From the NCBI GenBank assembly GCA_964504535.1, contig CAZDED010000007.1, forward strand, positions 12,353-76,352: DNA of 64,000 nucleotides, read 5' to 3'. Shown here piece after piece: positions 1 to 55,345 of the stretch. Every line of letters begins with the position of its first letter. Positions within the stretch are counted from its first letter, which is position 1. Below the pieces are notes generated by a model. It was not told the origin of the DNA, did not search any database, and saw only the letters and a program-made list of their open reading frames with translations. The translations under genes were made by a program, and so were the position numbers. The stretch comes from an uncultured Gammaproteobacteria bacterium (GTDB lineage: Bacteria > Patescibacteriota > Microgenomatia > Levybacterales > GWA1-39-11).

Positions 1-188
1 CCGGATACCAAAAAGATATCAGGTAAGCCATTCAAAATGACTGATTTTTATTACACACAAGTTATAAAAGTACGTTCCTTTCTCATAACAAAACGTGCTT
101 ATGTTTTGCCCTGATAAGAAACTAGAGGAAATTATATCACTAACTGAGGATAAATCAAATATTATGGGATGCATAAGATGAATTTTTA

Positions 189-391
189 AGCCAATGGTGG
201 GACTCGAACCCACGACTTGCTCTTTAAATTTTGTGAGCCGCTTCCGAGATTCGAACTCGGGACTTACTCTTTACGAAAGAGTTACTCTACCAACTGAGTT
301 AAAACGGCTCACAAAATTCAAGCTTTGCTTACGAAAGAGTACTCTACTTCATCCCGCCTCTTGCAGGCGGGACAAGCTGAGCCACATCGGC
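189..391 (-). other. tRNA-like 5' and 3' halves flanking the tRNA-Thr (split or disrupted tRNA-like locus)
   Basis: On the minus strand the 5' piece is GCCGATG-T-G-GCTC-AGCTTG (acceptor 5' strand plus start of a D arm). The 3' piece is GAGC-AAGTC-GTGGG-TTCGAGT-CCCAC-CATTGGC-T (T arm plus acceptor 3' strand). GCCGATG pairs with CATTGGC with one G-U. Between them lie a CCCGCC-TGCAAGA-GGCGGG hairpin, a degenerate copy of the Thr anticodon arm (GAGTACTCTTTCGTAAG), and the intact tRNA-Thr. Confidence 0.3.
236..308 (-). tRNA. tRNA-Thr (anticodon CGT)
   Basis: The minus-strand read GCCGTTT-TA-ACTC-AGTTGGTA-GAGT-A-ACTCT-TTCGTAA-AGAGT-AAGTC-CCGAG-TTCGAAT-CTCGG-AAGCGGC-T folds as a canonical 73-nt cloverleaf. 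It has a 7-bp acceptor stem with one G-U pair, a 4-bp D stem, a 5-bp anticodon stem, U33, anticodon CGT, and a TTCGAAT T-loop. No CCA is encoded. Confidence 0.8.
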
Positions 392-943
392 CTACTTTCA
401 TCTTCCATGCAATTTCGAACGTTTCACAAGTTCAAAAAAACTCAAAAGATCCCTTATTTTTCACGGATAAACACTCTAATTGGATTATTATATCGTAAAT
501 TTACCCATTCTGGGCTATATGTATCTGAGACGCTATCATAAGTAGATCAAAGAATATCATTTGAGCTTTACGAAAAGAAGGAAAAATGAATAAATTCTGC
601 TCCCAAGTGAATGGAAAATAGCGATTCCCCGAAACATTAAGCGGGTTAGACTCAGTTACAACCCGAGAGCTGCAACAATTCGCCCTGTTTGTTCCAAATA
701 AATGGAGCATACCCTGTTTCGAAACTTGTAGAGGAAAACATTACCATTTTCCAATCTACTCAAGAGCATATAAAGTATATCGCTCGATCTTTTCTTGTCA
801 ATATATGAGAATTAGATATTTAAAATATAGTATGTTGTATATAGTATTAAGTATATTGCATGGCTATTAAGTGTATATAAACAGTACTCAAACTAACAAT
901 TTTCCTGCTATATACTATATACGATATACCATATACTAAATTT

Positions 944-1786: not shown

Positions 1787-2161
1787 TTAGGAGGCCTCGG
1801 GGAGGCGTCCTCCCCATGCTCGCAGCTGCACGACACGCGCCTCGGATATCTCCAATTGGGAGGCCAACCTGACCTCCTGGATGACCTGGCGCGCCAATAG
1901 GTAAACTGCGTACTCGTCCCTGACTTCGTTGAGGCCAGAGCCGCCGAAGGGGACACCCTCGAGGTACACTCCCCCGTACCACGCGATCCGCCCCGCTCTG
2001 AGGCAAGAAGGCCTATTGGCCCACACCCTGGAAAGGGTTTCCTTGTGGTAGAGAGCTTCGAGCGCCTTCAGGCGCACGCTCTCGATGTACCGAGTGAGTT
2101 CATCGGACTCGCCGACGTAGTCCTCCCAGGGGAGGACTGATGACCATGTCGGATCATGCAT
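1787..2161 (-). CDS. hypothetical protein encoded in high-GC island 1
   Basis: 124-aa ORF with GC-rich codon usage, unlike the surrounding genes. No recognisable motif. Confidence 0.3.
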   Translation of the reverse strand: MHDPTWSSVLPWEDYVGESDELTRYIESVRLKALEALYHKETLSRVWANRPSCLRAGRIAWYGGVYLEGVPFGGSGLNEVRDEYAVYLLARQVIQEVRLASQLEISEARVVQLRAWGGRLPEAS

Positions 2162-7078: not shown

Positions 7079-7120
7079 GTGGACTAAGGGGCGCAAAGCA
7101 AGCTTCACGCCCCGGTCAGG

Positions 7121-7579
7121 TCAGTTCTCTCGGGATTCCTCCGTTGGATGTTTCCATCGCCCATTTACCCATTCGCTGGGATCGACTCTCACCTTGGGGT
7201 GATAATCCTCATCCAGAAAACGTTGGCGTGCGATTTGAAACTGCCGCCTTTCGTCGTTCTGCCTTTCGGCATACAGACGGCAGATACGGTGGGTAACTCC
7301 CATGCATATCAGCGAAGCTGTGAAGCTTGCGATAAATATCACGGAATACCACCCGGACTCCTGGCTGGTGATCAACCCGCCCACTATGGCTGCGGCCGTG
7401 GGCCCGCCAAAGAAGACGCATACCTGAAGGATTTGGTATTTCCACTGCATCCTTCTGCCAGGTGTACGGTAGCCCATTGCCCCCGACAGCATGCAAAGCA
7501 AGCCGATCAGGATTATGGTGCTAGCCGCCAACTGGAATTCCGGCGTGCTGTAGAAGAGCGCGCTTTGATCCTCAGTCAC
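7121..7579 (-). CDS. hypothetical membrane protein in high-GC island 2
   Basis: 152 aa with 3-4 predicted TM segments. GC-rich codons. It follows the 180-aa ORF with a 3-nt gap, suggesting an operon. Confidence 0.4.
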   Translation of the reverse strand: MTEDQSALFYSTPEFQLAASTIILIGLLCMLSGAMGYRTPGRRMQWKYQILQVCVFFGGPTAAAIVGGLITSQESGWYSVIFIASFTASLICMGVTHRICRLYAERQNDERRQFQIARQRFLDEDYHPKVRVDPSEWVNGRWKHPTEESREN

Positions 7580-7582
7580 GTA

Positions 7583-8125
7583 CTAATCCGTTCCTTTTGT
7601 TGTGAGGAAACCCTCACTTGTATGCGGAAGTGTGCCGACGTAGATGACAATCCGCCCCCGGTAGTCGACGTACTGATCTATCTGTTTCTTGGCAGCTTCC
7701 GCTGCCACGAATTTGACGCTGTACGTCGTCTTGAGTTGGTTCTCATCCGAGGATGCTTGCGCATCCTTATTGTGGGCTTGGTAGACAACCTCCTTGGCTA
7801 CCTCGAACATCGTGTCGAGGAGCTGAGGATCCGGGCTGAAGCCCGGTGCTACGCAGGTCTCAAAGACCAAGCCACGGATAGTAACAACGGTACCATCCTC
7901 TCCCTGAACCGTGATGGTCTCAGAGAGTGGTTTTGTGACGGCTTTTGCGTTGACGCAATCGGCAGGAGCTGCTCCTACCGCAATTGCGGTGTTGGTGTTC
8001 TCCTCTTGGTTGGCCAGAGCCATTAGGGCGATGCCCGTTGTGGCAAGCACTGCCAAGAAAAGGACTGTGATGAAGGTGCGGGGTCCAAATGACATGATGG
8101 TTCCTCCCATAGAACCGCTAGGCAA
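7583..8125 (-). CDS. hypothetical secreted protein in high-GC island 2 (likely start at internal MSFGPRTF...)
   Basis: A signal-peptide-like N-terminus (FITVLFLAVLATTGIALMALA) is followed by a soluble domain. GC-rich codon usage. Confidence 0.4.
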   Translation of the reverse strand: MPSGSMGGTIMSFGPRTFITVLFLAVLATTGIALMALANQEENTNTAIAVGAAPADCVNAKAVTKPLSETITVQGEDGTVVTIRGLVFETCVAPGFSPDPQLLDTMFEVAKEVVYQAHNKDAQASSDENQLKTTYSVKFVAAEAAKKQIDQYVDYRGRIVIYVGTLPHTSEGFLTTKGTD

Positions 8126-8390
8126 AGCTTTGGGCTCTGCGATTTGTTAACTGACCTGTTGTTAATGTACAGACGCAGGACGCGTCTCTGATATGCAATA
8201 ACAATCAGGCCGCGCAATGCGCCAAGACATATATTATACCAAAAAAAACAACCAACATCAAAAACTATGGGACTAAATTCTTTACATTTAAGTCACAGAA
8301 TAATTTTTTGAAGCAAAATTTTCACAGGATATTATTAGCTTCAAATTAGTCTCACTTGATACTTATTTCCAAATACTTGATACTAAAGGT

Positions 8391-48513: not shown

Positions 48514-48938
48514 GCGTATACTCGTTAGGCTTGAGGTTAGAGAAGGCAGCTTTCATAAATTCTCCCCCAAATTTCCAAAAGCTCTCTTCCCTGATCTTGA
48601 AGATTAGGAAAGTAGTATGAAGCAGACTATCCAATAGCTGGATAACTTTGCTTATAAGTACCACTTTGTTCTTTGACAATTGGTATACAGAAAAATTATT
48701 TCGGTTGACACTTTGGTGTCGGATTGAGCGTTCCGTTGGCATGAAAGCTGCACAACGGGCCGCTCAACCCGGCACTGTAAGTTACAACCGGAAAAACAAC
48801 ACTAAGGAGAAGAACATATTGGAGGCTCGATCTCCGCCCACCATTCCCCAACCGCAAGGCTGGGTCAAAAGAATGTAAGCGGTATCGTCCGCCTACATTC
48901 TTCCACTAAGTCAGAGTTCAGTTCCGGAGGAAAACACC

Positions 48939-49949
48939 TTGTCCAAGACTTGGATCGCTATCACCTCCATCGTTCTGACGATGGCCGTGATGATCGGTGG
49001 AGGCTGGGTTATCGCCCACCTTCCTAGCACGTCCGCCAACGCGGACGGCCCCGACGGAAGCCCCACGGCTTCCGCCACCGCGACCGTCACTGCGACGGCC
49101 ACCCAGACGCCCACTCCGGGCACCGACAAGAAGGACCAGCCGCCGGTGCCAAGCGCCGTCTGCCGGCTCGACAAGGTGGGCACATTCGCCGAGGTATCCT
49201 CGGCTGGCCCACAACGCATCGAAGTTGGCGGGGGGGGAACCCAGCACGTTGACTTCTATCCTGACCGCGGTGTCCCATCCGTTTCCTACATCGTAGGACC
49301 CGGTAAGGTCATAGTGGCACATGGATTTGGGAGCATCTGGGAGGGCAACCTTCCGGACTGTGCTCAGTTCAAATGGGTCGCCGATGCGACCGAATACGCT
49401 CTCGGCAACGTGGGCAACAATCGGCCGGACCGGCTTACGAAAGGTCACAGCGGCATCGTCATCGACATGAGGAGCAATCCTCCTGAAATCGTTGCGAACG
49501 CTCTCGGCCTCAACACGGCGCAGATCGTAAATCTGCTCGCAAAGCACGTGAAGGGAATGGAACTCACCGATAGCCAGAAGCAAATGCTGATGACTATCCG
49601 GATGGCCGCCGGCGTCACAACGCCTGCCGCCGGATCCAATACTGCTACGTGCAGCGAAGGTACCCGCGCCGACCACAAGCCGGCCAAGGATACCGCGTGG
49701 GACATTACGCCTACAGACTCCTTCCGCGTGGTCAACGTCTGGTCCAACCAGCGTGACCCCAACCTGGGAGACCACAAGCTCCTTCTCAAGCCTGGTGAGA
49801 GCGCAAGCCTCATGGGCGGCGGCGGTGCCGCCTGGTCCTTCCCGGCAAGCTGTGGCGACGCTGCCCAGGCCGCCTATGAGGCCAATACGAACCCGGCCAT
49901 AAGCCTGGCTCAGTACAAGGCCTACGTCGAAAAGGGCACCATGCCCTAG
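48939..49949 (+). CDS. hypothetical membrane-anchored protein in high-GC island 4 (N-terminal TM, Thr/Pro/Ala linker, C-terminal domain)
   Basis: 336 aa with strongly GC-rich codons (about 65% GC region). The strand was chosen because it gives TM, linker and globular domain; the antisense ORF looks like noise. Confidence 0.4.
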   Translation: MSKTWIAITSIVLTMAVMIGGGWVIAHLPSTSANADGPDGSPTASATATVTATATQTPTPGTDKKDQPPVPSAVCRLDKVGTFAEVSSAGPQRIEVGGGGTQHVDFYPDRGVPSVSYIVGPGKVIVAHGFGSIWEGNLPDCAQFKWVADATEYALGNVGNNRPDRLTKGHSGIVIDMRSNPPEIVANALGLNTAQIVNLLAKHVKGMELTDSQKQMLMTIRMAAGVTTPAAGSNTATCSEGTRADHKPAKDTAWDITPTDSFRVVNVWSNQRDPNLGDHKLLLKPGESASLMGGGGAAWSFPASCGDAAQAAYEANTNPAISLAQYKAYVEKGTMP

Positions 49950-50112
49950 ACATGAGTACCTCTGTATACCAAGCTCGGGATGCCCCCTACTGGGGGGCAT
50001 CCCGGCACAAGAGGGGAGGCGCTAACACCGCCTTCGAAGAACAAACCGGGCTTGCCCGGCAGAATGCTTCGGAGTCGATTGCCTCCCCCCTTTCCCCCTG
50101 TACATAAATATT

Positions 50113-54654: not shown

Positions 54655-55345
54655 TTGCTAATTTCTAAATTCGGACTTATTCCCAAGTTATCCACATTAA
54701 ATCATCTGTGTCAATTTAGCCTATTATATCAGCGTAAATCATATTTCTCACAACTCTAGGTCTACATCATAATATATCACTTTTGTTATAGGTTGAAGAG
54801 GTTGACAAGATGTGTTATACTTTTGATAATTATGAAACTTTTTTCATTCACCACCAAAAAACGCTCCAAAAACAATAGAAGTAAAAGGATTTTTGCGGAC
54901 TATCAACAGGAGTCTATAAACAACTACGGGAAACAACAATTAAAATCACTCATCAGCAAGGGCATTAGTGTCCAGTGGTAAGTAAACTTGAGACCTTCGG
55001 TCTTAAGCAAGCATTGCCAAGATTGGTGAGGCAGGATCTTTAAAATCAAGCGCAGTTTGATTTCAAGCTTCGCTTAAAATAACGGGTTTTTGGTTAACAG
55101 TTGTCTTTCTTTCTTTGACGAGGAGAAAGAAAAAGAGCATCGCTTTCGCTACTCATAAATAAATTCAAGTACGAAAAGCAATGCTCTTTTAACTGTTAGC
55201 TATTAGTCTTTAGGCAGGGTAAGACTATGCTAAGAATCAAATTAGCAAATTCTACTCTGCGTTGTCAAGAAAAAACGATGAAGCGGATTGTGATCATTTA
55301 GATTGTTAAATGGACACTTTTCACGAGTCGTGAAAATTTCTTATT

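Follow-up and report, generated by a model that had tools for sequence, protein, structure and literature searches.

A tRNA-Thr gene nested inside the halves of another: one case of a recurring, apparently undescribed remodelling of tRNA genes in CPR bacteria

How does an intact tRNA gene come to lie between the two halves of another tRNA gene of the same specificity? The question is raised by positions 189-391 (minus strand) of a 64,000-nt stretch of contig CAZDED010000007.1 (GenBank assembly GCA_964504535.1), the whole of which is referred to here as the window. The original prediction for this locus described a tRNA-Thr between tRNA-like flanks and left three options: an interrupted tRNA gene with a tRNA-bearing insert, an att-like duplication from an integrative element, or a processed split tRNA. 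Our results retained the first and spoke against the other two. The inner tRNA-Thr(CGT) gene (236-308, minus strand) was found to be intact and enclosed by the two halves of a second tRNA-Thr(CGT) gene. Overall, we consider it very probable that a tRNA-Thr of one sequence type (type A) was split by an insert carrying a tRNA-Thr of another (type B), and that this insert belongs to a recurrent insertion family of Candidate Phyla Radiation (CPR) bacteria; the processing of a precursor, and an origin by snap-back synthesis or as a cassette, we infer. The nest in the window is one case of a recurring and apparently undescribed form of tRNA gene remodelling in CPR bacteria.

Within 189-391, the sole tRNA called was the inner tRNA-Thr(CGT), at 235/236-308 on the minus strand, both by ARAGORN and by Rfam (RF00005, 66.2 bits). 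Around it lie a 5' flank, GCCGATG-TG-GCTC-AGCTTG (391-373), and a 3' flank, AAGTC-GTGGG-TTCGAGT-CCCAC-CATTGGC-T (218-189). The outer acceptor strands GCCGATG (391-385) and CATTGGC (196-190) pair at 7 of 7 positions, including one G-T, and the T arm GTGGG-TTCGAGT-CCCAC (213-197) is perfect; an acceptor 5' strand with the start of a D arm, a variable loop, a T arm and the matching acceptor 3' strand had all been anticipated and were borne out. The features of the nest, in the direction of the minus strand, and a second copy of its junction motif are as follows (comparison loci are given by L numbers).

385..391, minus strand: outer acceptor 5' strand GCCGATG (7/7 pairing with 190-196; identity with L037 and L039)
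373..384, minus strand: outer positions 8-9 (TG), D-stem 5' strand GCTC and early D-loop (AGCTTG)
348..372, minus strand: 25-nt GC-rich hairpin TCCCGCC-TGCAA-GAGGCGGGA plus TGAA (inverted repeat I8)
330..347, minus strand: end of the outer D-loop (GTA), D-stem 3' strand GAGT (344-341), anticodon stem 5' strand and loop TTCGTA to A37
319..329, minus strand: constant junction sequence AGCAAAGCTTG
309..318, minus strand: spacer AATTTTGTGA, 5' arm of a 10-bp helix lengthening the inner acceptor stem (inverted repeat I1)
236..308, minus strand: inner intact tRNA-Thr(CGT), a functional gene by ARAGORN, Rfam and comparison with L081
225..235, minus strand: insert tail CACAAAATTTA (227-236 form the 3' arm of the extension helix)
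189..224, minus strand: outer 3' part, with A38, anticodon stem 3' strand AGAGC, variable loop AAGTC, T arm, CATTGGC and discriminator T
55064..55076, minus strand: TAAGCGAAGCTTG, the junction motif's second copy in the window, within an intergenic stretch of 0.8 kb

The outer sequence represents a complete second tRNA-Thr(CGT) gene, interrupted twice: its D-loop contains a 25-nt hairpin, and directly after G35-T36-A37 comes a 105-nt insert (329-225), the latter consisting of AGCAAAGCTTG, AATTTTGTGA, the inner tRNA and CACAAAATTTA. The hairpin sits between the two G residues of the outer D-loop and is missing from all intact orthologues and from a similar nest at L081; its CCCGCC...GGCGGG arms (353-371), correctly foreseen together with the complete tRNA-Thr(CGT), have no second copy in the window (0 expected). 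Two assignments of the original prediction had to be changed. GAGC (222-219), taken for the 3' strand of a D-stem, lies within AGAGC, which forms the 3' side of the outer anticodon stem, the true D-stem 3' strand being GAGT (344-341). The supposed degenerate duplicate of the Thr anticodon arm, in turn, is the anticodon stem 5' strand and loop of the outer gene itself. Run in intron mode (-i0,400), ARAGORN recognised an outer tRNA neither in the window nor at 33 loci, which made splicing in silico necessary. When both inserts were cut out, ARAGORN called a 75-nt tRNA-Thr(CGT), whereas removal of the anticodon-loop insert alone gave no call on the outer gene.

Comparison with intact orthologous tRNAs identified the outer gene. 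Its 3' half differs by a single base from that of the L034 tRNA, and its first 15 nt are the same as in the L037 and L039 tRNAs; the flanks thus match orthologous tRNAs and are not unrelated intergenic sequence. With the inner tRNA, on the other hand, the outer 3' half shares 70% identity over 44 nt (repeat family D1), and a 12-mer and an 8-mer of the Thr D/anticodon region are duplicated (repeat families D3 and D7). The distance between the inner tRNA and the outer halves is 10-21 nt (21 nt on one side and 11 nt on the other), and the structure is the same base for base in four assemblies (window, L001, L002 and L078). The spliced outer tRNA would have a 4-bp anticodon stem with an A-C mismatch, and no position 26; one base at 26/27 is absent, and all 6 intact tRNAs in alignment A1 have a base there. 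These results show that the outer sequence is the older resident tRNA-Thr(CGT) of type A and that the insert brought a tRNA-Thr(CGT) of type B. They also identify the outer halves as a pseudogene in decay, which bears three lesions: the D-loop hairpin, the missing nucleotide at 26/27 and a G4-U69 pair. Since the intact tRNA brought in by the insert has an unchanged anticodon, the locus keeps its decoding capacity while the old gene decays.

We reached orthologous loci through homologues of UppP, which gave the same uppP-tRNA locus in eight other lineages. Each has exactly one intact tRNA-Thr(CGT), of one of three sequence types, and the debris around it varies. At least six different states were distinguished among the eight loci, and a nest is common only to the window and L081.

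L039: intact type A (GCCGATG...CATCGGC); no remnants
L079: intact tRNA of a third type; no remnants
L037: intact A; 3' remnant of type B downstream
L034: intact A; upstream, a broken B-like 5' part bearing the motif and two more hairpins
L041 and L083: intact B; 3' remnant of A downstream
L081: intact B in the same nest as in the window (A 5' part, motif, spacer, B, tail, A 3' part); older B-like remnant upstream

On a neighbour-joining tree of UppP, the state differs within every sister pair. Vertical inheritance of a single nested state was rejected as the sole explanation, the states being scattered on this tree. Between the window and L081, the inner tRNAs are 92% identical and include a compensated acceptor pair (T6-A67 to C6-G67), and the motif, spacer and tail are ~90% identical; the spacer AATTTTGTGA (309-318) is an exact inverted copy of 227-236, and 9 of these 10 positions are kept in L081. 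The outer halves are 76-79% identical, with indels, and the L081 outer gene has a T-loop TTAAATC and received no ARAGORN call after splicing in silico. Taking together the comparison with L081, the decay of the outer gene and the missing base at 26/27, we conclude from these sequence comparisons that purifying selection acts on the inner gene only and that the outer halves are a pseudogene. The near-identity of motif, spacer and tail in the window and L081, which are not sisters and carry different A alleles, suggests a mobile tRNA cassette or recombination of the locus. A compensated change in the outer T stem (GTGGG/CCCAC in the window, GTGAG/CTCAC in L081) fits independent insertions into different functional alleles.

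The constant sequence AGCAAAGCTTG with the preceding TA forms a motif, TAAGCAAAGCTTG (319-331), that folds into a 5-bp stem with an AAA loop. Its family-wide form, TA followed by AGCRAAGCTTG (the string is also written TAAGCRAAGCTTG), gives a 5-bp stem with an AAA or GAA loop. Public collections were scanned with GTAAGCRAAGCTTG-N(15-40)-TARCTCAG, which returned 26 loci in species-representative genomes, where ~7 would be expected by chance (our own arithmetic, assuming uniform base composition), and 35 more in metagenomes. The named records among these are Woesebacteria, Levyibacteriota and Saccharibacteria. One coding-like sequence, present in both collections (L012 and L064), was the only clear chance match; the status of L047 is doubtful. 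When 61 non-redundant junctions were compared, the TA had its A at tRNA position 20/21 in 37, at position 9 in 20 and at position 37 in two, the latter being the Thr gene of the window and an Ile-TAT; twelve isotypes were affected. The usual layout is a -10 box, a partial copy of the tRNA 5' part ending in TA, the motif, an inverted copy, a short spacer and the full tRNA, and some loci have tandem arrays of two or three such units. The direct repeat begins exactly at tRNA position +1 in 16 of the 61 junctions and 1-6 nt upstream of it in 17. In most of the 23 D-loop junctions tested, the inverted copy scored above nearly all shuffles; by eye, it often extends to the complement of +1. The motif is the hallmark of a whole set of small insertions into the DNA of CPR (Microgenomates-type) genomes. 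They lie after TA with an inverted copy of the flank, and at tRNA genes their direct repeat reaches back to position +1.

The upstream part of L001 illustrates the layout: GCCTCCTTAGCTCAGTGGTA is followed by AGCAAAGCTTG, 23 nt and a tRNA-Thr(TGT) whose own beginning repeats these 20 nt. In the window, the motif directly follows A37 of the partial copy provided by the outer gene, and an intact tRNA in the same orientation begins 10 nt past it (family range ~10-80 nt downstream); these 10 nt are the inverse of the inner tRNA's 3' trailer (repeat I1). The partial copy shares with the inner tRNA an 11-nt perfect run within 20 repeated nt (D3, D7), from the D-stem 3' strand to A37, and its first 19 nt belong to a different allele. 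Truly nested genes also occurred elsewhere. At L016, removal of the insert leaves a perfect tRNA-Thr(GGT) around a tRNA-Thr(CGT); further cases are L011/L043 (Thr-TGT), L028 and L046 (Met). More tRNA-Thr fragments lie on either side of the L016 nest (~1500-1900), and in the nested tRNA-Met of L046 the inner junction lacks the motif.

Copies of the motif away from tRNA genes were found on either strand: at 55064-55076 in the window, at 3598 in L034, at 3624 in L039, and at 6015 in L034 with its counterpart at 6590 in L037. The window contains two copies in 64 kb, against an expectation of 0.2 with one mismatch allowed, and L034, L037 and L039 contain five in ~26 kb. The second window copy is followed by inverted (AAATCAA) and direct (TTGATTTTA) copies of its upstream flank. 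At the stop codon of a gene with an HTH_17 domain, the window reads GGAATGTAG (empty site, 2664) whereas L034 and L037 read GGAATGTA, AGCAAAGCTTG, CATTCC, 18 nt and GGAATGTAG. This insertion (L034 6015 and L037 6590, minus strand) has an 8-bp target duplication, GGAATGTA, and an inverted flank copy; it replaces TAG by the motif's TAA, leaving the HTH_17 protein unaltered. Likewise, the 3' end of a conserved non-coding region beside the locus has no insertion in the window (empty site, ~599), L037 and L041, but L034 and L039 carry one there, its motif on the opposite strand. Target duplications at other non-tRNA sites are 7-9 bp. Because filled and empty alleles exist, these alignments show the motif unit to be a DNA insertion.

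An explanation that takes the motif hairpin and the partial 5' copy as a selected RNA leader, and sees in the window's outer halves a scaffold kept so that the inner tRNA can mature, accounts for several of these observations. The partial copy is usually identical to the tRNA 5' part while the inverted copy is degenerate, the apex is constant in sequence with a T-G closing pair, -10 boxes of promoters lie just upstream of the partial copy, and the structure precedes the same tRNA species (Gly-GCC, Thr-TGT) in several genomes. However, the motif also occurs on either strand at non-tRNA sites, as presence/absence alleles with target duplications, and the orthologous tRNAs of L039 and L079 do without it. 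The tandem arrays of two or three units resemble slippage products, and gene conversion between repeats 30-60 nt apart can keep the partial copy identical. We regard a selected leader as unlikely, although it may apply to the common form with a 5' copy; the either-strand, presence/absence copies away from tRNAs it leaves unexplained.

Could the outer halves instead be joined into a functional tRNA, the inner one being excised by RNase P/Z and the halves ligated by an RtcB-like or BHB-endonuclease-like activity (BHB, bulge-helix-bulge)? Insertion after position 37 is at the canonical intron site, and the perfect tRNA-Thr(GGT) left at L016 would suit this explanation. So would the predicted RNA fold of the 211-nt region (minimum free energy, MFE, -90 kcal/mol; z = -7.6), in which the outer acceptor is closed, a CUCUUU/AAAGAG helix resembles an anticodon stem, an AAGC-AAA-GCUU hairpin forms, and the 10-bp acceptor extension places the inner tRNA on a long helix. 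Yet the fold has no bulge-helix-bulge at the junctions: the MFE and centroid structures show a three-way junction, with the 3' junction inside a continuous helix. A second excision, from the D-loop, would be required as well, and the nucleotide at 26/27 would still be missing; the inner tRNA has the same anticodon, so that the outer would be redundant. Furthermore, the architecture is not kept in relatives, which hold one intact gene with variable remnants, and the outer halves of L081 are decayed and uncallable. Rfam searches, at gathering thresholds and, over positions 1-800, at E up to 10, found tRNA only, with no match to an intron, ribozyme, tmRNA or 6S RNA. Two related candidates were rejected separately: a group I intron in the anticodon loop, for which there was no Rfam core at E up to 10 and the insert is 105 nt where the class needs at least 200 nt, and a tmRNA-like domain, which neither ARAGORN nor Rfam found in an interval occupied by a genuine tRNA. 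A functional split or intron-bearing tRNA is, in our judgment, very unlikely.

Still less probable are attL/attR duplications from an integrase-mediated element or prophage, even though tRNA genes are classic integration sites and partial copies their classic footprint (10.1101/2022.07.05.498093). The fragments are only ~70% identical to the intact tRNA, hence not repeats of it, and flank it at 10-21 nt; moreover, 5' and 3' fragments of one gene are both present, which indicates insertion into a gene and not duplication of its end. The precomputed Pfam tables for the genes around the locus contained no integrase, transposase or reverse transcriptase, and neither did the 25 families listed, out of 76 matched, in a Pfam scan of 40 open reading frames (ORFs) of the window. 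The original prediction had drawn support from an excisionase-like helix-turn-helix gene and a GC-rich island nearby, and neither lends it. The former, the HTH_17 gene 2.3 kb away, is part of the syntenic core: WecG and MreB come after it in L034/L036, L037 and L039, whatever the state of the tRNA; since it is syntenic in the four relatives covering that side, it is uninformative on an integrated element. As for the island, the 124-aa ORF by uppP is also present in L001, and a gene of the same length occupies the position in L034. Finally, chance resemblance or mis-assembly at a repeated tRNA sequence can practically be dismissed: two contigs from other samples do stop at window position 276, inside the inner tRNA, but four independent assemblies agree, the outer halves match intact orthologues, and L081 has a homologous nest.

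If, then, a type A gene was interrupted by an insert bearing a type B gene, how would the locus work and how might it have arisen? A precursor would be transcribed through the outer 5' half, and the inner tRNA would be freed by RNase P and 3'-end processing from a precursor whose acceptor stem is 10 bp longer, the outer halves being by-products of processing. As to origin, a 3' end arising after TA would gain the GC(R)AAGC mini-hairpin, fold back and prime copying of the flank (snap-back synthesis); the primer 3' end for this extension would read ...GGTAAGCAAAGCTT-3'. The constant piece contains GCAAAGC or GCGAAGC, which we take to be of the very stable DNA mini-hairpin type. Copying and re-copying would halt at the 5' end of the tRNA or transcript. 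The repeat is 9, 20-21 or 37 nt long and yet reaches back to about +1, which argues for a boundary at that end; run-off by a reverse transcriptase (RT) or the edge of an R-loop are candidates for it. Two other origins were rejected: a fixed staggered cut, as the repeat length follows the distance to +1 (9, 20-21 or 37 nt, with 7-9 bp at non-tRNA sites), and a hairpin-opening (P-nucleotide) footprint, as the apex is constant and not derived from the target.

For nested genes, the proposal would be extended by a captured tRNA copy whose 5' flank inverts its own 3' trailer; the captured form could be a cDNA-like intermediate or else a small mobile cassette. The 5' flank of the nested inner tRNA, exactly to +1, is indeed the inverse of its 3' trailer, both in the window (AATTTTGTGA / TCACAAAATT) and in L016 (CTTTT / AAAAG). 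A trailer inverse up to +1 is what one would expect if an antisense copy of a precursor with a matured 5' end snapped back through its acceptor stem. Acting repeatedly on the GTA of Thr anticodon loops, such a process, or a small mobile tRNA cassette built by it, could yield 'Russian-doll' tRNA genes, in which sister lineages have A enclosed by B and B enclosed by A at one and the same locus. We put forward only tentatively, as a possibility that may well give way to another, that Microgenomates-type CPR bacteria undergo insertion-duplication after TA by hairpin-primed snap-back synthesis, with copies ending at the 5' end of a tRNA or transcript in an RNA-end-dependent manner, and that tRNA-Thr is thereby replaced from inside. 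The RNA-end-dependent step might be reverse transcription of a tRNA or pre-tRNA, or copying bounded by an R-loop.

Several points weigh against the interpretation as a whole. Transcription and processing of the precursor are inferred, the origin steps are conjectural throughout, and no candidate enzyme emerged, since no RT, transposase or integrase was among the 25 families listed in the scan of window ORFs. The tRNA junction of the window has no inverted copy of the upstream flank of the kind usual in the family (stem score 1), and the spacers between inverted and direct copies had no convincing 9-mer source nearby. The compensated change in the outer T stem is also compatible with a degree of selection acting on that T arm. 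Lastly, the patchy distribution of the nest on the UppP tree, as the sequences stand, would require repeated insertion or recombination between lineages.

Among known systems, the partial tRNA genes left by integrative elements come nearest. These are direct repeats of tens of bp, usually of the 3' part, with an integrase-encoding element of 9-120 kb between them (10.1101/2022.07.05.498093). The window resembles them in that DNA was inserted into a tRNA gene and non-functional pieces lie beside an intact, regenerated copy. It differs in that the intact gene is framed by the two halves of another allele, and in that the insert is ~105 bp, starts with a constant 11-nt hairpin and has no integrase; the wider motif family, moreover, repeats the 5' part of the tRNA, from +1. 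The BHB introns, split tRNAs and multi-intron tRNA genes of archaea and eukaryotes (PMC4090602) resemble the outer gene in an interruption one nucleotide 3' of the anticodon, a second one in the D-loop and halves that can pair. Unlike them, the window has a bacterial host, no BHB in the fold, damaged and unconserved exons, and an 'intron' that is a tRNA with the same anticodon. Inverted templated insertions by snap-back synthesis during end joining have been described in vitro for the group-II-intron-like RT G2L4 (10.1101/2022.03.14.484287) and for Pol theta (PMC11292364). Their scars are like ours in having an inverted copy of the flank after a small hairpin and then a direct re-copy, as expected of a 3' end that folds back to prime on itself; unlike those scars, which have no constant sequence, the junctions here share AGCRAAGCTTG, a TA target and a repeat ending at +1. 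No polymerase of the Pol theta/G2L4 type has been linked to the genomes with the motif.

REP/PATE elements of the IS200/IS605-RAYT type and TA-targeting miniature inverted-repeat transposable elements (MITEs) are, like the motif units, short, hairpin-forming, non-coding intergenic repeats with a fixed short target. IS200/IS605-type elements insert 3' of a fixed tetra- or pentanucleotide and are not known to duplicate their target; MITEs are bounded by terminal inverted repeats, together with a fixed target-site duplication. In the present family, by contrast, the duplication measures 7-9 bp away from tRNAs and 9, 20-21 or 37 bp at them, and the inverted arm derives from the target; insertion of a PATE or REP of the IS200/IS605 type was rejected on the 8-bp target duplication GGAATGTA at the filled/empty pair. 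In the tRNA-linked repeats of the E. coli tyrT type, 3'-end fragments stand in tandem downstream of the operon. The likeness lies in tRNA gene fragments beside the gene, and the difference in that the tyrT type is not known to have the hairpin motif or nesting. In the literature covered, open-access papers and bioRxiv, neither the motif nor nested bacterial tRNA genes turned up; the strings that matched the motif were primers in unrelated papers. We class the feature in the window as an insertion-disrupted tRNA gene with regenerated function, and the underlying process may be new.

Fragments of tRNA genes are usually taken as footprints of large integrative elements, whereas the events described here are of 40-110 bp and are recognised by a hairpin tag, a TA target and boundaries at +1. 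They also reveal a turnover of an essential, single-copy tRNA gene so rapid that all sister lineages examined differ. If the +1 boundary reflects an RNA intermediate, the family would represent a natural bacterial case of tRNA-derived retro-duplication, or a self-replacing tRNA cassette. For practical purposes, tRNA fragments and leader hairpins of this kind can mislead the annotation of CPR tRNAs and the assembly of contigs. Contigs L003 and L005, which come from other samples and are >99% identical elsewhere, start at window position 276, within the inner tRNA's anticodon loop, a hint of heterogeneous strains or of a branch of the assembly graph at the nest. In the same organism, 5.4 kb past the left end of the window, L001 carries at 1-125 (minus strand) a tRNA-Thr(TGT) after a 20-nt copy of its own 5' part, the motif and a degenerate inverted copy, and contigs L001 and L002 both terminate within this structure.

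The window itself has a GC content of 35-45% and encodes housekeeping proteins including UppP, MreB, LeuRS, Rho, ComEC and pyruvate kinase; the closest named match to its UppP, 72% identical, comes from a Candidatus Levybacteria metagenome-assembled genome, so that the DNA most likely belongs to a CPR bacterium of the Microgenomates group. The conserved non-coding region mentioned above (~169 nt; 599-767, minus strand) lies between uppP and the tRNA and is preceded by a near-consensus promoter, TTGACA-16-TATACT (774-801, minus strand). Its fold is a long rod with 55 consensus pairs, nine of them with compensatory changes over four lineages, and it had no Rfam match; on this modelled fold, it may be a 6S-like or otherwise novel small RNA. 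GC-rich islands at 1700-2650, 7100-8130 and 48900-50000 reach 62% GC, compared with ~38% for the genome, and their ORFs have no listed Pfam match; the 124-aa ORF of the first lies at 1787-2161 (minus strand). A GC-rich stretch is also found immediately upstream of the tRNA-Thr in L039. Decayed tRNA halves gather other palindromic inserts with GC-NNN-GC cores, such as the hairpin at 348-372 in the window, CAATTTGCAAAGCAAATTG after T8-A9 in L034 and CAATTTGCATCGCAAATTG in the D-loop in L016, which suggests a broader class of hairpin insertions. In L075, the T-loop of a tRNA-Gly is broken by a large insert.

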